A stretch of 15,899 bases of DNA from a virus (Duplodnaviria > Heunggongvirae > Uroviricota > Caudoviricetes), in the IMG/VR virus record IMGVR_UViG_3300020050_014748; one strand, 5' to 3'. Made by a program: the position numbers and the translations under genes. Each line of letters starts with the position of its first letter. Positions within the stretch are counted from its first letter, which is position 1. This document shows, in pieces, positions 1,894 to 15,653 of this stretch. The notes under the pieces are model-generated. The model was not told the DNA's origin. It did not search any database and saw only the letters and a program-made list of their open reading frames with translations.

Positions 1894-3168
1894 CTAGGCA
1901 GTAACCCCCTTGATCAATGAATGCTTAGAAGCTTGTGCTCTTTGGAGACCTACTTCTGAGATGTATTGATCAATCTGACCGTCAGCGTCTGGGCTTTGTA
2001 TGTTTGTTTCAAGCTTTGTATCGCGGTTGTTCATGAAACGGTAAGCGAAGCAATCCATATCCATCAAGAATGCATAACCTGCGTAATCTTCAACGAACAA
2101 TGGGTTGTGAACAATGTTTATAGAACCGAATGCTGTAACCCACTTGTTGATTTTCATACCATAAGTTGATTCAACTGGTTGCATAAGTATTTGACCACGT
2201 GCAATTTCGTTAATAGCTTGAAGAACTACACCACCAGTGAAAAGCATCTTTGTGTCATCACCGTAAGTGAAACCTTCACGTAGGAAAGTGTTAAAATCAG
2301 TAGCTGTCAAAGGACCTCCTTGGTTTTGAACGTAAGAATTACCTTGTTCAATAAATTCAAGAACTCCACCAGTTGCTCTGCGAGGGTGTCCTTGTGTTCC
2401 ACCTGTATCAGAGGCTTTTTGACCCCACCAGAATGCTCTTTCGATATCAAGGGCATGTTCTGTCCCTTTCTTAGCTCTTTGGTAAGGAAGATCTTTTCCA
2501 CCGTAAAGATTTGCTTCTTTTTCAGTGTTTGAAACAGCGATTGTTGTCTTAAAGATCTGTGTGTAGTTTGTAACTGGAGTTGATTGTGTAGCGTTTACAT
2601 TACGAGCACCTGAGTTTTCCTCATTAGCATTACCGATAATGTAAAGACCATCACCAACAGCTGGAGTTGCAGCCGCAGTAGAACCAAAAGCACGTCCACC
2701 TGATGCAACTGTAATAGTTGTAGATGAGCCGATTGTAGCAACAATCATGTTTTCGTTTGTTCTTGCGTTTTTAATAACATCACCAACAGTGAAAATGTAA
2801 GCAGAAGATGAACCAGCACCTGTAACACCGAGTGTCAAAGCACCAGTTGTACCTGTAACAGCAGAAATACGTGAGTATCTACCACCGTAGAAATCTTCAA
2901 ACCACTTAAATTCAGGATTTCCTGTAGGCTTCTTAAGAATACCTGCTCCTTTCCAAGCTTTTCCATCGTAAACCTTTCCTACGTTTGTAAGAAGAGTTAC
3001 GAGAGGGTGCTTATTAGGTTCAAGAAGGAAAATCTTATCTTGTGCATCAACGATCATTCTTCCTTCAGCAACTGAAGTAGCTGTATCTCGTGCACCATTT
3101 CCTGATGTGTTTGTAACCGGACCCTGTGTGTGGGTTGGTTCGTTGTAATATGGGTAAACGTTAGGCAT
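1894..3168 (-). CDS. Major capsid protein, HK97 fold, SU10/DUF5309-like with insertion domain (424 aa)
   Basis: Motifs recognised as typical of this family: KWFED, NYTQIFKTTIAVSNTE, DIERAFWWG, RATGGVLEFI. Directly follows the scaffold gene; a Gly/Thr-rich beta insertion lies at about aa 97-185. Confidence 0.9.
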   Translation of the reverse strand: MPNVYPYYNEPTHTQGPVTNTSGNGARDTATSVAEGRMIVDAQDKIFLLEPNKHPLVTLLTNVGKVYDGKAWKGAGILKKPTGNPEFKWFEDFYGGRYSRISAVTGTTGALTLGVTGAGSSSAYIFTVGDVIKNARTNENMIVATIGSSTTITVASGGRAFGSTAAATPAVGDGLYIIGNANEENSGARNVNATQSTPVTNYTQIFKTTIAVSNTEKEANLYGGKDLPYQRAKKGTEHALDIERAFWWGQKASDTGGTQGHPRRATGGVLEFIEQGNSYVQNQGGPLTATDFNTFLREGFTYGDDTKMLFTGGVVLQAINEIARGQILMQPVESTYGMKINKWVTAFGSINIVHNPLFVEDYAGYAFLMDMDCFAYRFMNNRDTKLETNIQSPDADGQIDQYISEVGLQRAQASKHSLIKGVTA

Positions 3169-3214: not shown

Positions 3215-3979
3215 TTAGAAGTGATTAGCGCTTGCCTTACTCGCGATAAGCGAATCAACAACTCTTTCAGCTTCCCCACCAGAGTAAGTCACTCTGCTGT
3301 TCCCTCCTCCAGCATTTAAAATCAAGTTCTTTTCGTACTCAGCTTGATCTATAGCCGCTCGGTCTCTTGCTTCTTTCTCAGAAAGTTCACCTTTGACTGC
3401 ATAGTATGCAACTCGAATGTCAGTGACATCGTGTTCTTCTAGCCATTGGTTTACATCTTCAGCGTATTTAGCAAAATCAGGTGTATTTGTTATGAAATCT
3501 GAAACATTTGTTTCGAAACTTCTTAATTCTTCGTCTTCCTTTATCTTTTTCATAAATTCTCCACGAATTTCAGAAACTTTTTCATCAACAAGCTTTGCAA
3601 TATCATCAGCAGAAGTTTTGTCATACTTTTTCTCACCAAGTTCTTTTTGAACTGAAGTGTGAGCTTCTGTAATAACCTTAGCTTCGCCAATAGTGATATT
3701 TCCATCAATAACGGCCTTAGTTAGGTCTTTATCAATCTTACCATCTAAGATAGCTTGAACAAGTTCTGGGTTACTATCGAGTTTCTCGAATAGTGGTGCC
3801 ATATCTGACATGAATTTTCTCAATTCTCCCAATTCTTCTCCTTGTCTACCTACTACTTTCTCTAAGTTTTCTTTCTGTGCTAGATCCACAGCTGAGCTAC
3901 CCGAATTCACGGACTCATTTCCTTCTGGTCTACCCGGTGTTCCGGAACCGTTGTTGTAATCAAAATTATTAACTGACAT
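3215..3979 (-). CDS. Capsid scaffolding protein (254 aa)
   Basis: Acidic and helical; contains LEKVVGRQGEELGELRK, a motif typical of podovirus-like scaffolds; directly upstream of the major capsid gene. Confidence 0.8.
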   Translation of the reverse strand: MSVNNFDYNNGSGTPGRPEGNESVNSGSSAVDLAQKENLEKVVGRQGEELGELRKFMSDMAPLFEKLDSNPELVQAILDGKIDKDLTKAVIDGNITIGEAKVITEAHTSVQKELGEKKYDKTSADDIAKLVDEKVSEIRGEFMKKIKEDEELRSFETNVSDFITNTPDFAKYAEDVNQWLEEHDVTDIRVAYYAVKGELSEKEARDRAAIDQAEYEKNLILNAGGGNSRVTYSGGEAERVVDSLIASKASANHF

Positions 3980-4002
3980 ATATTTTATTCATAATTAATT
4001 TT
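3977..4002 (-). repeat. 26-nt exact repeat, copy 2 (leader plus start codon of scaffold gene)
   Basis: Identical to 962-987; similarity continues as aata after a one-base gap. Confidence 0.9.
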
Positions 4003-4012
4003 TAATAGAAAC

Positions 4013-4156
4013 TTAACACTTTTTCATTTTAGAGGAAATCACTTTCTTGATGATACCTTTCTTCTTTTTAGAGAATCCAGCATCAACCTTTAATCTCCCT
4101 TCTTCCTTTGACTGTTCGGTTGTCCTTGGTCCGTGGATTTGTTCAGTATTTTCCAT
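4013..4156 (-). CDS. Small protein with basic C-terminus (47 aa: MENTEQIHGPRTTEQSKEEGRLKVDAGFSKKKKGIIKKVISSKMKKC)
   Basis: ATG at 4156 sits 7 nt after the stop of the 59-aa gene. The track's GTG start at 4216 would overlap that gene and is less likely. Confidence 0.6.
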   Translation of the reverse strand: MENTEQIHGPRTTEQSKEEGRLKVDAGFSKKKKGIIKKVISSKMKKC

Positions 4157-4163
4157 AAACAGT

Positions 4164-4343
4164 TTACTTATTAAGCTTACTAGACAAATTCTTGTACTTT
4201 GACATACCCATTCCACCGATCATTTCTGACCCTGGAGTACCTGGCATGTTCATGTCTGCAACCTTACCAAGACCTGATTTACCTTTTCCAGCCTTTTTAA
4301 CAGCCTTCATGAGCACATTCTTTTTTAAATTCTTATCAATCAT
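4164..4343 (-). CDS. Small basic Lys/Gly/Met-rich protein (59 aa: MIDKNLKKNVLMKAVKKAGKGKSGLGKVADMNMPGTPGSEMIGGMGMSKYKNLSSKLNK)
   Basis: Absent from the ORF track, probably because of its length. Manual translation gives ATG at 4343 with AT-rich leader (aaacaattATG) to TAA at 4164; fills an otherwise empty gap; 13 Lys. Confidence 0.75.
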   Translation of the reverse strand: MIDKNLKKNVLMKAVKKAGKGKSGLGKVADMNMPGTPGSEMIGGMGMSKYKNLSSKLNK

Positions 4344-4416
4344 AATTGTTTAAAATAATTCTTTTAAATACGACCATAAATCCACGAAAACGTGACAACT
4401 TCTTTATACAAGTATA

Positions 4417-4430
4417 ATTATACTATAAGT
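4417..4430 (-). promoter_or_regulatory. Putative promoter motif ACTTATAGTATAAT upstream of the small-protein/scaffold/capsid block; overlaps perfect palindrome AGTATAATTATACT (4411-4424)
   Basis: Consensus TATAAT -10 box; 11/14 identity to the motif at 7918-7931; lies in the 95-nt gap before the ATG at 4343. Confidence 0.55.
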
Positions 4431-4438
4431 ACTACAGA

Positions 4439-4828
4439 TTACCAGTTATTTGGATTAAAATCTCCTTCATCGTCAACAGGAGGAGTTGAATCATCATTTT
4501 TTGCCTGAATAGCAGCTTCTTCTTTTTTGATAGATTCTTTTATTTTATCAACAGCACTATGTATATCCATCAATCCACTTAATATACCTTGAGCTCTTGC
4601 TAATGATGTACCTTCTTTTATTGGATCAAGCGTACAGAGAGTACTTTGAGCAATAAGCATTCTATCTTGAACATATTTTGTAAGCGCAACCCAGTAATGT
4701 GTTTCTTCAAGTTCTTTTATAATCTGAACCATCTCTTGGTTTGTCATTTTATTAACAGAATCATTCAATTCCTTTTTAAAATATGTTTCAACGTACTTTT
4801 TGTTTTCAAATTCTTTATTTTTATTCAT
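4439..4828 (-). CDS. Small helical head-module protein (129 aa), resembling the small proteins often found after portal genes (Bbp19-like)
   Basis: ARAQGILSGLMDI segment and position between portal and scaffold; family call is tentative. Confidence 0.55.
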   Translation of the reverse strand: MNKNKEFENKKYVETYFKKELNDSVNKMTNQEMVQIIKELEETHYWVALTKYVQDRMLIAQSTLCTLDPIKEGTSLARAQGILSGLMDIHSAVDKIKESIKKEEAAIQAKNDDSTPPVDDEGDFNPNNW

Positions 4829-4849
4829 ATTATATATATTATTTATTAA

Positions 4850-5293
4850 TTATCCAATATTATTTACTTTATTATATGCATCTTCTGGATCCATACCATC
4901 GTTTATTAAATTATTTATAGCATCCTGTTTATATCCATCTTGTTTTTTACTTTCCAACTCAAGATCTTTTTTATATGCCTTAAATGGATTAAGTGAGATA
5001 TTTTTTATCTTACTTTTAAGTGTCTTCATTTTATCTGACTTAGCAATATCTTTAATTGTATCAACAGACTTACTTAGACCCATAGCCCCTGGAAACATTA
5101 CCGTTGCTGCACTTTTCATAACCTTACCTGCAACATTAGGGAATCTTGATGGTGAAGTCGAGTCTTTGACTGCCTTTTCAACATTAGATGTTTTCTTTTT
5201 TAATTCTTCCATACCAGCGAAATCTTTTTTCATTTCTGTTTTTGGTATTTTCTTAAGTGATTTCTTAAGAATATCTTTTTTTTGATTATCCAT
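4850..5293 (-). CDS. Lys-rich hypothetical protein (147 aa)
   Basis: ORF track; 31 Lys counted; co-oriented and tightly packed; N-terminal KKDILKKSL motif. Confidence 0.75.
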   Translation of the reverse strand: MDNQKKDILKKSLKKIPKTEMKKDFAGMEELKKKTSNVEKAVKDSTSPSRFPNVAGKVMKSAATVMFPGAMGLSKSVDTIKDIAKSDKMKTLKSKIKNISLNPFKAYKKDLELESKKQDGYKQDAINNLINDGMDPEDAYNKVNNIG

Positions 5294-5312
5294 AACTTAG
5301 TTAATTATATTA

Positions 5313-5702
5313 TTAATGTAATGTCTTTAAATACTTGTACTTATAAACTGATTGTAATATTTCATCTCTTATATTCAACAAAGAAGAATCATAAACATCC
5401 ATACACTTCAAGCAATCTATTATAACATCTGGATCCATACATGACTCTATCTCTTTTTCAAACACAGGTCTTTTCCCGTCATTGAAACCGATAAATGCTT
5501 CTACAAATGTATCTAGTAGACCATCTATTGAATCTTGAATTTCCCTTGTTGCTTTATGTAAAGCAAAATCTGTTGTCTCCCAGTGCGTTAATCTTAACCC
5601 AAGACTAAAACCTTGCATTTTTTGCACAAAATATGGCAAGGAAAACTTATCTCCATATATTGCCTTCTGTATTATATTTTTTTTCTTGAAATCTTCTGAC
5701 AT
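5313..5702 (-). CDS. Dps/ferritin-like protein, phage DUF5856 type (129 aa)
   Basis: THWETTDFALHKATREIQDSIDGLLDTFVEAF keeps the HW, second His and D-x3-E ligands (His to Asp spacing of 15, as in Dps); C-terminal NIRDEIL..YKYLKTL resembles DUF5856. Confidence 0.8.
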   Translation of the reverse strand: MSEDFKKKNIIQKAIYGDKFSLPYFVQKMQGFSLGLRLTHWETTDFALHKATREIQDSIDGLLDTFVEAFIGFNDGKRPVFEKEIESCMDPDVIIDCLKCMDVYDSSLLNIRDEILQSVYKYKYLKTLH

Positions 5703-5722: not shown

Positions 5723-7906
5723 TTATCCTTGAATGTTAAATGTACGATTCATAAGTGCACTTTCAGGGTTTGAGTTTCCATTCATAGAAATATTCGTGTT
5801 GACTTTTCCGCCCAACTTACGATTAAACCCTCTTGGGTTTGATGTGAACCCTGGGCCACCTCTTCCCTTCGGAATACCTTTTGCTGTTGGTGGACCTCCT
5901 GCTTTCTCTAGAAGATTAATTGGAGCACCAGCTTGGGCAAATGGAGAAGCACCAGAATCTCCAGGTGTTCTCAACATAGACAAAGCCTGACTAAGAACAT
6001 TTGGTGGAACAACATTAGATGTTGGTCCTGAAGGCATAGGAGCAGGCATTCCTCCACCCATCATTGCAGCCATTTCTGGTGGCATACCCTCCATAGGCAT
6101 TTCTCCTGGTGCTCCTTCTGGTGGAAGAGGTTGTCCATCCATACCAATAGGTTGCCCATCTGGTCCCACTGGATTCTCCTCTTGGTCTTCAGCAGATTTA
6201 GCAATAGAATCAAGACTCCAATTCCAATCAGCAAGAACTTTTGTTGTTAATTTCCTAGGATCAACAAACGGAAGTGGTATAAGGAGCTGGAATAGATCCA
6301 TATCTTGTTTCTTTTTAATATCATTTTGTCCAGCAATAGAAGGAAGAACAGCAGCTTTGTAGTCAAATCTACCCAACAGGTCATCTTTCTCAATAATGGG
6401 AAACTCAAGTTCACCATTATCTCCAAGAATTCGTATTGTCATTTTCTCTGTAAATAACTGACGTGACATATCCATCCAATATCTCATCACATCAGAAAGG
6501 CCCTCACCGAGGTGGTTTACAAACAATCGAACTCTTTCTAATGTTGATTCACGCAGGTGTCTAACTTCAGTAGCAGATCCAGCAGATCCCCCAGCCCCCA
6601 TAGAGAAATCATCAACACCGGATGAATATCTCATGTCACTCTTAAGAAGATCTTCTTCTCTATAAGCAGAACCCTTAATATCACTAAACTGAACTTCTCT
6701 CACCCCTTGTGGGTCAACTGAATAAATAATACCAAAAGGTCTTGTTACGAGTTCGTCTTTATTTATGTTTGCAAGAGGGTTAACAATCCACATCTTGTGA
6801 ATACTCAAAGTTGCAGCATCAAGACGCTGGTTCTTAATCATATTGAGCATGATCTGTGGATTTTCAAGAATCATTGGCAAGCCAATACCCTCAAACTCAT
6901 TTGGCATCTTTAAATAAGGAACTTCAATAAAAGGAGTTTCTTTAAAGTCATAAGGAAAAGGAATAGATCCACCCTTTAAGATAGGAACATAACTTCCACC
7001 GATATGTACAGAATATTCATCGTCAAACGGTCTATACCATTCAAAAACTTCATACATTTGAAGATCTTGATCTCCGTAGTTATTGTATTTATCGGTCCCT
7101 ACACCTCGTAAAGCACCATAACTGGCTTCTGCGCCTTTTACAATAAGCTCGTGAGATTTTTTTGTAAGCGCTCTAACAGAAGCGTAATCATTAAGATCAC
7201 CCCCAGGACTATTTAATCCCATTTTAAGTCTTTTTGAGTCAGCCATTGGATATCTTCTCTTTATTTCAGGAGCAGTCAATACAAATCTTTTAAACCAGTA
7301 TTGCTTACTTTGTCGTGCTGTATTATGCCAGTCGTACCACAGTGAGTAGTTATCTACCCATTCACAGTAAGGTGCATCATAAAAAACTTTCTCTTTTGTC
7401 TCGTATTCATACTTCTTACTTGAAACATCTTTTGTTTTAAGAAATTTAAGCTTTCGAACATCTTTCTTCCAACTAACTTGTAAGTAACCAGTACCGTAAA
7501 TAAGAGACGATCTAACGAGTGTCTCCATTGTTGAGTCCATTCCAGCTATTTCCCATAGGTAATCACCAAGCTGTTGTTGTTTCTCTGATTTAAGTTGATC
7601 ATCTGCTGTTCTTCCTTGAACTGTAAATTCAGGACGAGCATCCAAAACACGAGGCATAAGTGTTTCAACCACCGCTTGTGTATACGGCACGAAAACATTA
7701 GCCTGCCATTTCTTTATCTGGATCTGTCGATCACCATTCCATCCTATGTATAGTTTATAAGATCTATCGAGTCTTGGTTTTATTTGATTCAAGAAATGAT
7801 TACGAGCATCTTGCATTTGAAGATGAAACTTATTCATCAAATCCTTATCACCAAAATCGTCTGGTGTATATGATCCTATTTCTCTTGAGCTTCTTGAGTT
7901 TGACAT
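5723..7906 (-). CDS. Portal protein (727 aa) with a long Pro/Gly/Met-rich C-terminal extension
   Basis: Directly downstream of TerL; ANVFVPYTQAVVETLMPRVL, GIGLPMILENPQIMLN..KNQRLD and SATEV motifs of P22/SU10-like portals. Confidence 0.9.
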   Translation of the reverse strand: MSNSRSSREIGSYTPDDFGDKDLMNKFHLQMQDARNHFLNQIKPRLDRSYKLYIGWNGDRQIQIKKWQANVFVPYTQAVVETLMPRVLDARPEFTVQGRTADDQLKSEKQQQLGDYLWEIAGMDSTMETLVRSSLIYGTGYLQVSWKKDVRKLKFLKTKDVSSKKYEYETKEKVFYDAPYCEWVDNYSLWYDWHNTARQSKQYWFKRFVLTAPEIKRRYPMADSKRLKMGLNSPGGDLNDYASVRALTKKSHELIVKGAEASYGALRGVGTDKYNNYGDQDLQMYEVFEWYRPFDDEYSVHIGGSYVPILKGGSIPFPYDFKETPFIEVPYLKMPNEFEGIGLPMILENPQIMLNMIKNQRLDAATLSIHKMWIVNPLANINKDELVTRPFGIIYSVDPQGVREVQFSDIKGSAYREEDLLKSDMRYSSGVDDFSMGAGGSAGSATEVRHLRESTLERVRLFVNHLGEGLSDVMRYWMDMSRQLFTEKMTIRILGDNGELEFPIIEKDDLLGRFDYKAAVLPSIAGQNDIKKKQDMDLFQLLIPLPFVDPRKLTTKVLADWNWSLDSIAKSAEDQEENPVGPDGQPIGMDGQPLPPEGAPGEMPMEGMPPEMAAMMGGGMPAPMPSGPTSNVVPPNVLSQALSMLRTPGDSGASPFAQAGAPINLLEKAGGPPTAKGIPKGRGGPGFTSNPRGFNRKLGGKVNTNISMNGNSNPESALMNRTFNIQG

Positions 7907-7934: not shown

Positions 7935-10484
7935 CTAATATCCACCGAAAATAGGAATATGATTATCTGATAATTGTGTTGTTGGTTTCGTACTCATAAC
8001 TTTAAACGCCTGGAATGCGATAGCGAGCGCAAAGACCCCATCATCATGAAAACCGTCCATAGCACCAGATCTATTATTTTTATCATATACAAATACAGTC
8101 ATTTCGTCTAGTAAAACCTTAGAGTGAATTAAAAGGTCTTTATCTCTAATAGCTTGAACAATATCATCTATCATGATGTTTCTAGTCATGAGTGTTGTTT
8201 TCCAGCCAAGTTTATCTGACCACGGTGATGCAACTGTTTCAAATTTTGAAGGTCTGAAGTACATAGACGGATACAGCAACTGCTTTAATATCGTTACTGT
8301 AGTAAGGCCGTGGTTGTTTATTTCCACCGCCATTAATGCATTATTATAATATCTTCCTATTTCATTTAATTGCTCGCCGAATTTATCTGGAGCTATTTGT
8401 GCCCGAAACATAGCAACCTCTTCTCCTGTCGTACGATTAAATATTACTGCAACCGAATAGTCTCCCCCAGTCACCCCTTCCGCAACGTCAGCTCCCACCA
8501 CGTAAAATGCACCGACTTCCGGCTCTTTATAAATTGTCCAATCGTTTTTTTCTCTTACAATATGGACAACACCATGTTCGTCTGTGATTTGGTCACCGAC
8601 TTTTAGTTGGTGTTCTCTCATTTCATTAACAACCTTAGAATCAAAAACCATTCTACCTGAGGCAAGAAACGTAAGTTCGTACTCCTGAGCAAACTTCTGT
8701 GGATCATTCATTCTTCTTCTGATTGTTTCTATCTGTTCTTCTGTATACATCCACCACCAACCATACTCTCTTTTTGCATAGTCGTTATCAGAAACCCACA
8801 TCCTGTGGTATAGATTTCCTGCCCCTTTTGGTGTAGATTCAATTATAATCTTACCCTCAATCGGCACTGATGCTTCAATTGTCATCATTTTTTCATCGGC
8901 TTTTTCCCAACTCGAAAGCTCTGTACAATTATGAACAACACCAGAATGTGTCAAAAAACTATGTGGCTCTTTTTCTAAAACAATATCATACACAAGATCT
9001 TCTTTTTCTATTTCTTTGATACTTCTAATTTTCATCCAATAATGAAATCTCCCTCTTACCCATGTTTTTTGTCCATAATTTCTGCCCGGGTCATTTTCTA
9101 TTATCCACCTAAATCTTCCATTATCATATGTTGGCATTGGAAAATTTAACTTTCTTCTTAGTTTGTAATTACCTGGTCCTAATATTGATAGATTATATCT
9201 AGTTTGATTTTTCACACCATACCTACTTGTTTCACATGAATTAATTGAAGCAAGCCCTATTCGCAATGAAACAAGCAACTTCTTAACCTGATAAACAAGA
9301 GATGGGCTAATTGATACAAGTATAGCCTTACGGTCATTAGTCAAACAACCATCTCCAAGGAAAACACCCCTTAAGAAACCATACCCAAAATCCCATCCCC
9401 AATACCAAACTTTATCTGAGATCGTTTTATTTGCAGCCCCACTCCCAAAGAAATCCGAAAAAAATAATGATAATGGACTTGAATATACACATATTGTTGC
9501 CGTCTCACTTTTTTTACTCAAATAAACACTAATTTTATTAACAACACTACCAACTGTTTTTTGTAGTAATGGCAACAAGTAATCTACCTCATTTTTATTA
9601 ATAGAAAATATTGTTCTCCCTGGTGTAATGGAACCTTCTGCTGCAAACCAACCACAAACTTCCCCAAAATCTCTACTGTATTTTAGAACACCCGTTTTTG
9701 TTCTTGATTTATATTCGTCTTTAACATAAACACTTAAATCAAATTCCTTAAATCTATTTCTTAGTTGAAAGTATGGATACCCAACATAATCCCCACTCTT
9801 TAAAACACCAGCTGGCTTCCAACCATCTCTAGTTAAGACCTCGTGATTCTCTGTCAACTTAAGATCATTAATACACCCAACAGTATCTATTGATAACATT
9901 TTAGTATCAGGCTTTTTTTGAATTACTTTTTTTACTTTTGATTTACCACCATTTCCATTAACAATAAAATCCCCATCTTTTAGGTTTTTTATTTTTATTA
10001 AATTTCCATTGTCACCAAAGACAATAGTATCACCTGACAGACAAAGCACATTATGCAAGGTATACCCGCGTCCCACATTCTCAGTTGAAGGAAGAACGAG
10101 AAGCTTAGATCCTAGTTTAGGAAATGACATTTCATACTTTGAGTTATATTGAACAGTCGGTCTTAATTCACCTGGCGTTGAAGAATAAAATGTTTTAACC
10201 TTATCAAGAAGTTCTGAGGTAAGGTCAGAGTTGTATCCAATAATAGCAGTGTTGGTACCTGGTTGCATAACTGTTCTGTGGTACAGAGCCGCAGTTGCTA
10301 CTGTTGAATATCCGATTTGTCGCGCTTTCAACACAATCATACGGTTAAATTTTTTAAACGTATTTAAGAAATCTTTCTGTGCTTCATTTAATATAAAAGG
10401 AATTAACCCTGGTGTTTTACCTTTGATTTTTAAAAAAGATTCAATATAAAATTTTGGATCAAGTAATTTTTTGATTTTATTCAT
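7935..10484 (-). CDS. terL: Terminase large subunit, intein-containing (likely start ATG 10484; about 477 aa after splicing)
   Basis: Q-motif LNEAQ, Walker A KARQIGYST, Walker B reconstituted as NVL/CTE after splicing, RNase H-like nuclease motifs VGADVAEG, VEINNHG and HDD. The track start at 10499 is TTG; ATG 10484 overlaps the terS stop as ATGAATAA. Confidence 0.95.
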   Translation of the reverse strand: MNKIKKLLDPKFYIESFLKIKGKTPGLIPFILNEAQKDFLNTFKKFNRMIVLKARQIGYSTVATAALYHRTVMQPGTNTAIIGYNSDLTSELLDKVKTFYSSTPGELRPTVQYNSKYEMSFPKLGSKLLVLPSTENVGRGYTLHNVLCLSGDTIVFGDNGNLIKIKNLKDGDFIVNGNGGKSKVKKVIQKKPDTKMLSIDTVGCINDLKLTENHEVLTRDGWKPAGVLKSGDYVGYPYFQLRNRFKEFDLSVYVKDEYKSRTKTGVLKYSRDFGEVCGWFAAEGSITPGRTIFSINKNEVDYLLPLLQKTVGSVVNKISVYLSKKSETATICVYSSPLSLFFSDFFGSGAANKTISDKVWYWGWDFGYGFLRGVFLGDGCLTNDRKAILVSISPSLVYQVKKLLVSLRIGLASINSCETSRYGVKNQTRYNLSILGPGNYKLRRKLNFPMPTYDNGRFRWIIENDPGRNYGQKTWVRGRFHYWMKIRSIKEIEKEDLVYDIVLEKEPHSFLTHSGVVHNCTELSSWEKADEKMMTIEASVPIEGKIIIESTPKGAGNLYHRMWVSDNDYAKREYGWWWMYTEEQIETIRRRMNDPQKFAQEYELTFLASGRMVFDSKVVNEMREHQLKVGDQITDEHGVVHIVREKNDWTIYKEPEVGAFYVVGADVAEGVTGGDYSVAVIFNRTTGEEVAMFRAQIAPDKFGEQLNEIGRYYNNALMAVEINNHGLTTVTILKQLLYPSMYFRPSKFETVASPWSDKLGWKTTLMTRNIMIDDIVQAIRDKDLLIHSKVLLDEMTVFVYDKNNRSGAMDGFHDDGVFALAIAFQAFKVMSTKPTTQLSDNHIPIFGGY
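8928..10043 (-). mobile_element. Full-length intein with LAGLIDADG homing endonuclease (372 aa) in TerL
   Basis: Block A CLSGDT (Cys1 codon 10043-10041), block B LTENH, LAGLIDADG-like GWFAAEG and FLRGVFLGDG, block F VYDIV, block G VHN (Asn codon 8930-8928), +1 extein Cys. Confidence 0.95.
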
Positions 10485-11004
10485 ATAAATTTTTACCAAC
10501 TTTATTCTCTTCCTCCTTTTGTATTCTCAAGAACTCTGGCATTTCAGGTGTAGCAACCTCATACTCAACATCAATTGGTTCTTCTATTTGTTTATCTTCT
10601 TTTTCTGCGGACTTTAATATCATATCTTCCCAACTTCCCGTATCAGCCTGAACGTCTTCATATTTATCCATACCTAGAGATTTAAGTACAATCTGAAGCG
10701 CCTTAATTCTATCAGCTGACTTTTCAGCTGTTTCTGCTTCAACTTTTAGACCTTGTGCTATCCATCCAAAATCCATCCCTAGTCTTTTTAACGCAGAATA
10801 ATATTCTTTTCTATTTGCAATCTTATCAAAGGTACGAGAAACATCGGCCATGGTTTTTGCGCCGATCATTTTTTGTAACATCTTTGGATCACTCGTAACC
10901 TTAAGAGCCTTAAGAAGAAGGAACTCTTTTAAGTTATCCTTTCCGTAATAATTATATCTACCTGAAATAAAAGAAACTGGTTTTAGTTTTTTGTCTTCAT
11001 TCAT
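10477..11004 (-). CDS. terS: Terminase small subunit (175 aa)
   Basis: Immediately upstream of and overlapping terL; ADRIKALQIVLKSLGM matches the common TerS 'DRlKAlelLgK.lGm' oligomerisation helix. Confidence 0.75.
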   Translation of the reverse strand: MNEDKKLKPVSFISGRYNYYGKDNLKEFLLLKALKVTSDPKMLQKMIGAKTMADVSRTFDKIANRKEYYSALKRLGMDFGWIAQGLKVEAETAEKSADRIKALQIVLKSLGMDKYEDVQADTGSWEDMILKSAEKEDKQIEEPIDVEYEVATPEMPEFLRIQKEEENKVGKNLYE

Positions 11005-15166: not shown

Positions 15167-15180
15167 AGTATACCATTAGT
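15167..15180 (-). promoter_or_regulatory. Extended -10 promoter ACTAATGGTATACT upstream of the 1004-aa gene
   Basis: TGnTATACT ending 10 nt before the ATG; 12/14 identical to 7918-7931. Confidence 0.6.
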
Positions 15181-15499
15181 TCGGCAATATAATATCTATT
15201 CCATTGATATATTTCTTTAAAGTATCAGCAGAAACGAACTCAACCTCCTTGTGACCCTTCCTAATCACAATCTCCCCCTTGTTAACATTAAACCCCTTAC
15301 TTGGCTTATACTGTTTAACATACAACTTACCTAACCCAGGCATATTAATATCCCTCCCTACCCTAAATTGATCAACAACAACCTTAAGTAATGCATAATA
15401 CACCATTCTCACAGAATCCTCCGGCATACCATTCGCCCTAATAGAAAGGTTTCTAAAAAACTCATCAGGACTTATAGAATTATTTTTTGATTTTAACAT
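15176..15499 (-). CDS. HU/IHF-family DNA-binding protein (about 107 aa; likely start ATG 15499)
   Basis: INMPGLGKLYVKQYKPSKGFNVNKGEIVIRKGHKEVEFVSADTLKKYIN aligns by eye with the HU signature V.l.GfG.F.v..r..R.GrNP.TGe.i.i.a.k.v.F.pg..LK..vN. The track start at 15526 is TTG. Confidence 0.85.
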   Translation of the reverse strand: MLKSKNNSISPDEFFRNLSIRANGMPEDSVRMVYYALLKVVVDQFRVGRDINMPGLGKLYVKQYKPSKGFNVNKGEIVIRKGHKEVEFVSADTLKKYINGIDIILPN

Positions 15500-15653
15500 C
15501 TTTTTTGGTATAATAGGTATTCCCAAATTCTTTTTTGATCTTTATACTCCTCTTTATCATCATCTCAGATAAATAAAACCTTCTGCATGTATCAGAGCAG
15601 AATTTCTTTGTCGATGAGCAAGTGCTTTTTTTACAATTAAGACACTGTTTCAT
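15480..15653 (-). CDS. Small Zn-finger protein (57 aa from ATG 15653; CxxC...FCSxxC treble-clef type)
   Basis: MKQCLNCKKSTCSSTKKFCSDTCRR. The track start at 15686 lies deeper inside the upstream HNH-like frame. Confidence 0.7.
   Translation of the reverse strand: MKQCLNCKKSTCSSTKKFCSDTCRRFYLSEMMIKRSIKIKKEFGNTYYTKKDVKIKK

Follow-up and report, generated by a model that had tools for sequence, protein, structure and literature searches.

A terminal basic helix module in the portal-scaffold cassette of uncultured phages with SU10-type head genes: a candidate docking signal for the head interior

Known loading signals and the locus

To our knowledge, it is largely unknown how the proteins of the head interior are chosen in tailed phages other than T4, and internal head proteins are hard to see by cryo-EM. 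The targeting peptides of encapsulin cargo have a consensus rich in Gly, Ser and Leu. In T4, the subject of two reviews (PMC3012670, PMC9958956), a short terminal sequence (CTS) is common to the otherwise unrelated proteins IPI-III and Alt and presumably guides their entry into the head during its assembly. In P22, the terminal hook of the scaffold contacts the coat N-arm (Arg293 and Lys296 with Asp14, Glu15 and Glu18), and the ejection proteins assemble together with the scaffold (PMC12005531).

The locus described here lies in a window of 15,899 nucleotides (the whole stretch of DNA that was analysed; IMG/VR record IMGVR_UViG_3300020050_014748). It belongs to a clade of uncultured phages of ~100 kb with SU10-type capsid and portal proteins. 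All features discussed below are located on the minus strand. A cassette of five small genes is bordered upstream by a portal gene of the SU10/P22 type (5723..7906; Pfam PF23899, E 5.5e-20, and PF16510) and downstream by a putative scaffold gene (3215..3979; 254 aa, pI 4.6, net charge -19), followed by the gene of the major capsid protein (MCP, 1894..3168), which has the HK97 fold and belongs to the SU10_MCP family (Pfam PF17236, E 1.5e-54). The scaffold gene gave no above-threshold family match in Pfam, and its identity is inferred from composition and from a location flanked by the portal and MCP genes. The cassette is flanked by portal, an intein-containing large terminase and the scaffold-like gene.

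The first small gene encodes a DUF5856 (Dps-like four-helix-bundle) protein of 129 aa (5313..5702; Pfam PF19174, E 1.3e-9). It is followed by a gene for a 147-aa protein with 21% Lys, which is probably disordered (4850..5293; ESM Atlas model, pLDDT 0.53), by a gene for an all-helical protein of 129 aa with a long helical hairpin (4439..4828; AF2 pLDDT 84.6), and by a 59-aa gene (4164..4343) and a 47-aa gene (4013..4156). Besides its motif (see below), the product of the 59-aa gene has a second conserved peptide, KYKNL (4185-4199), on its C-terminal side. No Pfam or PHROGs family was matched by the 147-, 59- and 47-aa proteins, the ESM Atlas search with the 147-aa protein came back empty, and a fold search with the all-helical protein gave no informative PDB match. 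The gene content of the cassette turns over fast between close relatives. The only small-gene family of the cassette that is common to most relatives is that of the all-helical protein (53 members in 60 loci).

The other four small genes had drawn attention in a first-pass annotation, which reported that they share a basic nine-residue motif, KK-x-[IV]-[IL]-x-K-[ASV]-[IVL]. On re-checking, all four copies were found where that annotation had placed them: KKNIIQKAI at 5658..5684 (aa 7-15 of the DUF5856/Dps-like protein), KKDILKKSL at 5255..5281 (aa 5-13 of the 147-aa Lys-rich protein), KKNVLMKAV at 4299..4325 (aa 7-15 of the 59-aa protein) and KKGIIKKVI at 4037..4063 (aa 32-40 of the 47-aa protein). 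The first three copies are thus N-terminal, while in the 47-aa protein the motif follows a copy of the MCP N-arm. The all-helical protein lacks the motif.

As a short terminal peptide on otherwise unrelated proteins, the motif is comparable to the CTS of T4. Its sequence is different, however, and whereas the CTS is located at the N-terminus, right after the start Met, the motif is C-terminal about as often as N-terminal. The phages differ as well: the CTS is that of a T4-like myovirus, while the motif carriers lie together in a single cassette of a phage whose head genes are of the SU10 type. When prohead proteases were searched for in a complete 97-kb relative, Peptidase_S78, CLP_protease and Peptidase_S77 were all unmatched, which leaves room for a divergent protease. 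Because no prohead protease of the T4, HK97 or ClpP type was found, a cleaved signal in the style of T4 is unlikely, and the motif would probably not be removed, in contrast to the T4 signal.

The motif also resembles encapsulin cargo peptides. Here too a short conserved terminal peptide is present on unrelated putative cargo next to the gene of an HK97-fold shell, and one of the candidate cargo proteins (the DUF5856/Dps-like protein) is putatively ferritin-like. An encapsulin is an HK97-fold shell that lacks portal, terminase and tail, whereas the present shell is that of a genuine phage head, with a portal, a scaffold and a terminase, and the motif is Lys-rich and helical rather than rich in Gly, Ser and Leu.

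The motif can also be set beside the C-terminal coat-binding hook of the P22 scaffold, a helix-turn-helix. Both are basic, terminal, helical elements, and that of P22 docks on the inner capsid surface. A conserved acidic stretch is likewise found in the MCP N-arm of the present phage. The P22 hook, however, sits on the scaffold, whereas the motif sits on small accessory proteins. The putative scaffold of this phage has no basic end of the P22 hook kind, and inspection of its ends and conserved blocks for the motif gave nothing convincing.

Significance, conservation and terminal place of the motif

In all six frames of the whole window, the original pattern and a looser version of it matched at the four sites only. 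The copies do not constitute a DNA repeat, as had already been stated in the annotation: the 27-mers are identical at 15-18 of 27 positions and synonymous codons differ between copies. Its description of the carriers as otherwise unrelated also held, since the four window proteins form separate BLAST groups once the motif is masked.

In a de novo search, the top ungapped 9-mer block in four of the five small proteins was exactly the motif, with a sum-of-pairs score of 158. The comparison with shuffled sequences that had been suggested was carried out in two ways. Composition-preserving shuffles scored 91.8 +/- 8.7 (maximum 130, z 7.6) and none of 1000 reached the score of the motif; with local shuffles in 12-aa blocks the scores were 97.2 +/- 9.7 (z 6.3), and again none of 500 reached it. 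The annotation had cautioned that Lys-rich proteins may match by coincidence, and three of the four carriers are indeed Lys-rich (21-23% Lys, pI 9.7-10.3). A genome-wide scan for the motif was done on two complete relatives of ~100 kb, and in that of 101 kb all six matches (6/6) belong to genes within the 2.8-kb cassette, while 13 other small Lys-rich genes outside it remained below the threshold. In the complete 97-kb relative, the sole match outside the cassette is a SNF2 helicase. A chance likeness among Lys-rich, low-complexity proteins has a negligible probability: it is refuted by the shuffles, by the conservation and cassette confinement of the motif in relatives and by the Lys-rich genes that are free of it.

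The motif is conserved in homologues, and it recurs both in orthologues and in numerous other small proteins that the cassette encodes and that are unrelated to the first carriers. That of the 59-aa protein, for example, is kept in a family alignment of eight members (A6). Across 60 related loci, a position-specific scoring matrix (PSSM) found the motif in 87/316 proteins between portal and scaffold versus 8/614 elsewhere, although this matrix was trained on cassette proteins, so that counts resting on it are circular, and counts across relatives are inflated by common ancestry. Six of the eight carriers outside the cassette are small ORFs adjoining the portal gene. The only test free of circularity is the application of the window-derived pattern to 11 relatives: in these and the window, 22 of 72 cassette proteins match versus 2 of 113 others, where shuffling predicts 0.6 and 1.1, respectively.

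The distribution of the motif is nevertheless restricted. Many relatives have no clear copy or only one, and the motif degenerates with distance. This sparseness indicates that the motif is dispensable for head assembly. Since it is also absent from the giant putative cargo proteins of the complete relatives, it is not a general loading signal of the phage group. A profile search of the genomes with a 15-column motif alignment recovered only part of the copies found by the PSSM, and owing to this low sensitivity its negatives carry little weight. No PDB sequence was matched by a profile of the motif. In a phage collection no cultured relatives were found: the best MCP identity was 28.5%, the conserved motif-less 129-aa protein was unmatched and the portal had only two weak matches. 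Contigs of the clade occur in MAG bins labelled Bacteroidales, Saccharibacteria and Shapirobacteria, which is a weak guide to the host.

The consensus of the motif is KKxILKKAVKK, so that the module comprises ~11 residues. Among the family representatives, 95-97% have a hydrophobic residue at positions 4, 5 and 9, and 54% have Ala at position 8. Such a residue pattern is better accounted for by packing on the surface of a protein than by unspecific effects of charge. The suggestion that a set of proteins has a terminal peptide in common was borne out as well: in 71 of 82 distinct carriers the motif lies at most 15 residues from the N- or C-terminus, versus 38.5 expected (P < 5e-5). By place, 40 copies are N-terminal, 38 C-terminal and 15 internal, and the end that carries the motif is mostly constant within a family. 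With the motif masked, BLAST grouping yielded at least 37 sequence-unrelated groups of carriers, a count tempered by the fact that such short, fast-evolving proteins could be undetected homologues. The 9-mers are copies of a conserved, transferable basic amphipathic helix module in a fast-changing portal-scaffold cassette.

The occurrence at either terminus, together with a common KKA[IV] core, would also suit a tag for a host or phage AAA+ machine that times the turnover or unfolding of the carriers, a ClpX-type signal such as the C-terminus of MuA. The motif, however, usually lies a few residues in from the extreme terminus (N-terminal copies begin at aa 3-12, never at aa 2) and is linked to no AAA+ gene. 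There is only a slight chance that it serves as such a tag.

Portal tail, capsid N-arm and the Dps-like carrier

The motif resembles a helix of the clade's own portal. In an alignment of portal tails, a conserved helix near the C-terminus (PPNVLSQALSMLRT, aa 634-647, 5966..6007) displays the same hydrophobic pattern (phi-phi-x-x-A-phi, then Gly). In four relatives, the portal C-tail is partly duplicated (BLASTP E 1e-7 to 1e-9), and in the duplicates the motif occupies the same place and replaces the conserved helix of the tail. A PSSM made from portal helices only falls in register on the motif in 21/79 carriers, versus 1.3 expected. The two differ in charge: the portal tail helix is mostly uncharged, whereas in the motif all positions that are not hydrophobic are taken by Lys.

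Being terminal, basic and amphipathic, with moderate helical hydrophobic moments (0.23-0.49), the motif could also bring its carriers to the membrane of the host, either in the course of infection or once they have been ejected, in the manner of the terminal helices of MinD or FtsA, which bind anionic membranes. The hydrophobic face is narrow, however, and Ala, Val and Ile are favoured over bulky aromatics. The positional homology to the portal-tail helix and the restriction to a cassette of head genes likewise speak against membrane targeting, which we judge very unlikely.

A second link to the head is provided by the 47-aa protein, whose segment aa 9-26 (GPRTTEQSKEEGRLKVDA, 4079..4132) copies a part of the MCP N-arm (aa 24-42, 3043..3099). 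When the 47-aa protein was compared to the MCP of the window, 10 of 19 residues were identical (BLASTP, E 8e-4), and an HMM built from 23 segments of the 47-aa family matched aa ~20-43 of 45 MCPs (best E 2e-6). In this family, the motif is located at most 15 residues from the C-terminus in 15 of the 17 motif-bearing members and mid-protein in the other 2. The likeness to the portal C-tail helix and the copy of the MCP N-arm would thus both be links to inward-facing parts of the head, and they agree with a role inside it.

The same copies would be expected of assembly regulators or decoys. Here the helix would likewise dock in the procapsid, but its carriers would not be cargo: they would vie with the portal tail and the N-arm of the capsid protein for the partners of these two, would thereby tune nucleation or size, and would exit with the scaffold. 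Besides the 47-aa protein with its N-arm copy, other small ORFs copy the portal tail, and all are encoded alongside assembly genes. Such a role does not explain, however, why a folded Dps-like protein is tagged, nor the rapid turnover of the cassette; such turnover characterises accessory or host-directed proteins more than the core factors of assembly. Regulation of assembly is in our opinion distinctly unlikely.

The Dps-like protein is assigned by Pfam to DUF5856 only, and a literature search found no paper in which DUF5856 is mentioned. Its AF2 model is a helical bundle with a separate N-terminal motif helix. As the annotation had proposed, the motif precedes the first helix of the bundle: a low-confidence helix at aa 3-14 is followed by a helix at aa 22-42. 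In Foldseek, the top 13 matches and nearly all of the first 50 were of the Dps type but weak (E ~0.1), with probabilities of 0.97-0.99 and TM scores of 0.55-0.6. H40, W41, H49, D64 and E68 are invariant, which we take to resemble the ferroxidase pattern of Dps. The orthologues of this protein keep the N-terminal motif. Among the best 150 representatives of the DUF5856 family, however, the full motif is present only in the closest one, and three representatives without it were traced to contigs that have no recognisable head module. Judged from these sequences, the motif is a clade-specific add-on to a widespread DUF5856 (Dps-like) domain.

E. coli Dps binds DNA through a Lys-rich N-terminal tail. 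The motif could be a parallel to this tail, that is, a contact element with which the Dps-like protein and its small Lys-rich neighbours bind or condense phage DNA, in the head or in the cell. The high Lys content and pI of three carriers are in line with this, as is, weakly, the Dps-like fold. Charge alone, however, leaves the strict hydrophobic pattern and the Ala at position 8 unexplained. In addition, the matching portal-tail helix is mostly non-basic, and other small Lys-rich genes in the same genomes lack the motif. DNA binding alone also offers no route into a closed procapsid, as far as head assembly is generally understood. A DNA-binding or DNA-condensing helix is therefore considered unlikely.

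A possible docking helix and its meaning

It is tentatively proposed, at somewhat less than an even chance, that the motif serves as a helix for docking inside the head, independently of any protease. The helix would anchor small proteins within the head while the latter assembles, by which they would be built into the procapsid; the cargo would consist of the small Lys-rich proteins together with the Dps-like one. The docking site is probably the same as that of the conserved helix in the inward-facing C-terminal tail of the portal, because the motif and the portal helix have an equal hydrophobic pattern and an equal place in the duplicated portal-tail genes. Likely receptors would be the core of the scaffold and, in the capsid protein, the inner face or the N-arm. 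Binding, its receptor, the presence of the carriers in the virion and any delivery to the host are what we infer. In a complex prediction with the 59-aa carrier as partner of the MCP, the scaffold and the conserved all-helical 129-aa protein, a score of 0.02 was obtained versus a mark of 0.32, which neither supports nor opposes binding.

A wider proposal, possible though rather doubtful, is that of an encapsulin-like cargo system in a tailed phage. A single helix derived from the interior tail of the portal, independent of a protease and able to work at either terminus, would load small proteins of a rapidly changing repertoire, and with them a Dps/ferritin-like protein, into a capsid of the HK97 fold, and a second class of proteins would enter via copies of the MCP N-arm.

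With a short sequence rule for proteins of the head interior, cargo could be predicted in uncultured phages, and accessory proteins that are possibly delivered with the DNA would be flagged. The rule would also provide a small natural tag with which foreign proteins could be brought into shells of the HK97 fold. That the motif proteins resemble the portal tail and the N-arm of the capsid protein suggests a way in which tags of this kind may originate, namely by the copying of inward-facing extensions of structural proteins. The tagged Dps-like protein beside a capsid gene recalls the ferritin-like cargo of encapsulins. If the encapsulin-like cargo system is true, the virion cargo of this group would be predictable from sequence, and the system would form a natural bridge between phage heads and encapsulins.

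Gene layout and the shared motif of the cassette

All genes of the window are located on the minus strand. A 1004-aa protein and three unknowns come first in transcription order, with an HU/IHF-type DNA-binding protein gene (15176-15526, -; Bac_DNA_binding, E 9.7e-11) upstream of the former. The large terminase gene (7935-10499, -) carries an intein (Intein_splicing, LAGLIDADG_3 and Vint matches) that includes a LAGLIDADG homing-endonuclease domain. It is followed by the portal gene (SU10/P22 type) and by a cassette of five small genes encoding proteins of 129, 147, 129, 59 and 47 aa, in that order. Next comes an acidic 254-aa protein (pI 4.6), taken as the putative scaffold from its position and composition. 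The last gene encodes the major capsid protein (MCP) with HK97 fold (SU10_MCP family, E 1.5e-54). The regions upstream of the small genes and the scaffold gene are AT-rich, and no Shine-Dalgarno-like sequence was present before them (3980-4000, 4157-4175 and 4344-4375 examined). Related contigs reach up to 97-102 kb; a search for a close cultured phage found none (top MCP identity 28.5%). Contigs of the clade have been binned with Bacteroidales and CPR MAGs. In several related loci (L013-L016, L047-L051, L054, L063) the MCP gene is found in pieces 1-3 kb apart with other ORFs between them, an arrangement that points to introns, inteins or mobile genes inserted within it.

Four of the five small proteins share the 9-residue motif KK-x-[IV]-[IL]-x-K-[ASV]-[IVL]: the first 129-aa, Dps-like protein (5658-5684, -), the 147-aa protein (5255-5281, -), the 59-aa protein (4299-4325, -) and the 47-aa protein (4037-4063, -). 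The first-pass annotation, which proposed a common capsid-loading peptide, had placed all four exactly, and neither its pattern nor a looser version matched elsewhere in the six frames of the window. Its dismissal of a DNA repeat also holds: only 15-18 of 27 bases agree between copies, and the synonymous codons differ. As the pattern had been drawn up with the data in view, an unbiased search was run for the best ungapped 9-mer block common to four of the five small proteins (BLOSUM62 sum of pairs). The same four peptides were recovered with a score of 158. This score was not reached by any of 1000 shuffles that left the composition of each protein intact (91.8 +/- 8.7, maximum 130), nor by any of 500 shuffles within 12-residue blocks (97.2 +/- 9.7), the comparison for which the annotation had called. 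A chance resemblance is practically negligible as an explanation.

The fifth, motif-less small gene (4439-4828, -) represents the sole small-gene family of the cassette common to most relatives (53 members in 60 loci). Its 129-aa product is confidently predicted to be all-helical with a long hairpin (pLDDT 84.6), and searches of Pfam, PHROGs, PDB folds and cultured phages gave no match. Members of the 59-aa family also conserve another peptide, K-Y-x-N-[LIV], near the C-terminus (4185-4199, -, in the window; also in L002, L007, L008, L012, L023, L025 and L036). A further small family (~50-58 aa, C-terminus ...DI.KKLS.KKFGKK), not represented in the window, is encoded immediately upstream of the scaffold in many relatives (L004, L005, L006, L008, L009, L012, L028, L030).

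Distribution and anatomy of the motif

Relatives were collected by MCP-based searches as 60 non-redundant loci, mostly with 65-92% MCP identity and a few at 24-43%. A loose pattern derived from the window only was applied to the first 11 relatives. Including the window, it matched 22 of 72 portal-to-scaffold proteins versus 2 of 113 other proteins, where shuffling predicts 0.6 and 1.1, respectively; both non-cassette matches come from a single relative, where they are small genes located between terminase and portal. Over all 60 loci, a partly circular 15-column PSSM matched 87/316 proteins inside the cassette versus 8/614 outside, counts that share ancestry. Conservation in related phages is thereby borne out. 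Six of the eight outside matches are small ORFs adjoining the portal gene. Many relatives possess no or one clear copy, and with distance the motif decays to a looser K-K-x-phi-phi-x-x-phi-phi.

A gene-by-gene scan of two complete relatives showed their giant proteins to lack the motif. In the 97-kb genome it is carried by two genes of the cassette and, close to the end of the protein, by an SNF2 helicase; all six matches of the 101-kb genome fall within the 2.8-kb cassette. In the latter genome, 13 other small genes whose Lys content is 15% or more all scored under the threshold. The earlier caveat that Lys-richness might produce coincidental matches is therefore no explanation for the motif.

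The consensus K-K-x-I-L-K-K-A-V-K-K was built from one representative each of 37 groups, separated by BLAST with the motif masked. Hydrophobic residues fill positions 4, 5 and 9 in 95-97% of the representatives, position 8 is Ala in 54%, and positions 1, 2, 6, 7, 10 and 11 are mainly Lys; Gly often follows. The carriers appear to be mutually unrelated, though for very short proteins unrelatedness cannot be proven. Of 82 distinct carriers, 71 have the motif no more than 15 residues from a terminus (expected 38.5, P < 5e-5). N- and C-terminal copies are about equally frequent, and the end is mostly constant within a family. AF2 models the Dps-like protein with the motif in a helix of its own (aa 3-14, low confidence) that precedes the first helix of the bundle (aa 22-42); a position before that helix is also what the annotation had given.

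Modular spread and likeness to head proteins

The Dps-like protein (5313-5702, -) was assigned to DUF5856, for which an exhaustive search returned 401 representative clusters (E <= 1e-3). Among the best 150 of these 401, the motif occurs in the nearest one only (58% identity, same clade), and two at 44-45% identity show a degenerate version. The remaining ones mostly begin directly with the bundle or bear other extensions. The motif-bearing representative is found within a run of small genes resembling this cassette. Three motif-less members could be placed on contigs (among nucleotide-metabolism genes, near MazG and beside a C1 peptidase), none of which had a recognisable head module. In this small sample, the DUF5856 domain appears to bear the tag when located in the cassette, as a modular tag would predict. 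H40, W41, H49, D64 and E68 are invariant among the orthologues. The protein may bind iron, because their spacing resembles that of the Dps ferroxidase residues.

The portal of the clade has a long Gly/Pro/Met-rich C-terminal tail of ~170 aa (5723-6230, -) with three conserved islands: a helix (P-x-V-[AL]-x-x-A-L-x-M-L-[RG]-G), SPFxxAxxPINLL and PPT...NPRG..N..GKVNTN...NPE. In four relatives, a small gene immediately downstream of the portal duplicates part of this tail (BLASTP E 1e-7 to 1e-9 against 25-41 portals), and the portals of the three of these loci that were inspected keep their own tail. In the alignment, the basic motif of the tail copies occupies the position of the portal helix. 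A portal-only PSSM from 26 portal helices was scanned over 79 motif proteins, tail copies left out, and its best match and the motif were exactly in register in 21 of 79 (expected 1.3). The C-terminal crown and barrel of solved portals are directed into the capsid (see the papers on crAss001 and SU10). Taken with this inward orientation, the kinship indicates that the motif is a basic version of a helix working inside the head, likely derived from the portal tail. Small cassette proteins also contain a G[KR]GGPG peptide resembling one in the portal tail.

Residues 8-26 of the 47-aa protein match residues 24-42 of the MCP of the window (10/19 identical, E 8e-4). Built from this segment in 23 family members, an HMM matches the N-arm of 45 MCPs (E down to 2e-6, 930-protein set). 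The 47-aa protein is thus more than a Lys-rich peptide: its family consists of an MCP N-arm copy with the basic helix behind it.

A candidate docking helix for the head interior

The motif may well be a docking helix for the interior of the assembling head, although this reading is held tentatively. Several features fit it: a hydrophobic stripe that is strictly kept and has a small residue 8, the location at protein ends, the spread among unrelated proteins, the restriction to the head cassette and the relationship to the portal-tail helix. The helix would pack against a protein surface within the assembling head, the candidate receptors being the acidic scaffold (net charge -19) and a conserved acidic stretch of the MCP N-arm. 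P22 offers a precedent for such docking: the hook of its scaffold uses basic residues to bind acidic ones in the coat N-arm, and its ejection proteins co-assemble with the scaffold (PMC12005531).

The Lys-rich positions might instead belong to a DNA-binding helix, which is unlikely, and the carriers might be assembly decoys departing with the scaffold, which is somewhat more doubtful. Both overlap with docking, as a basic protein docked in this way could contact DNA too. That such a helix targets a membrane is improbable, and that the terminal peptide is a tag for an unfoldase is very improbable. With docking as the preferred reading, the tag would probably be retained after loading, unlike the T4 signal, since a search of a complete relative gave no protease of the S78, S77 or ClpP type.

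T4 and the encapsulins already provide the principle of one terminal peptide, common to several proteins, that steers them into a capsid. Judged from sequence, the present case departs from these in five respects: the peptide has another sequence, it occurs at either end of a protein, no protease seems to go with it, the phage is of another type, and the peptide likely stems from the portal tail, with the MCP N-arm being copied by a second class of small proteins.
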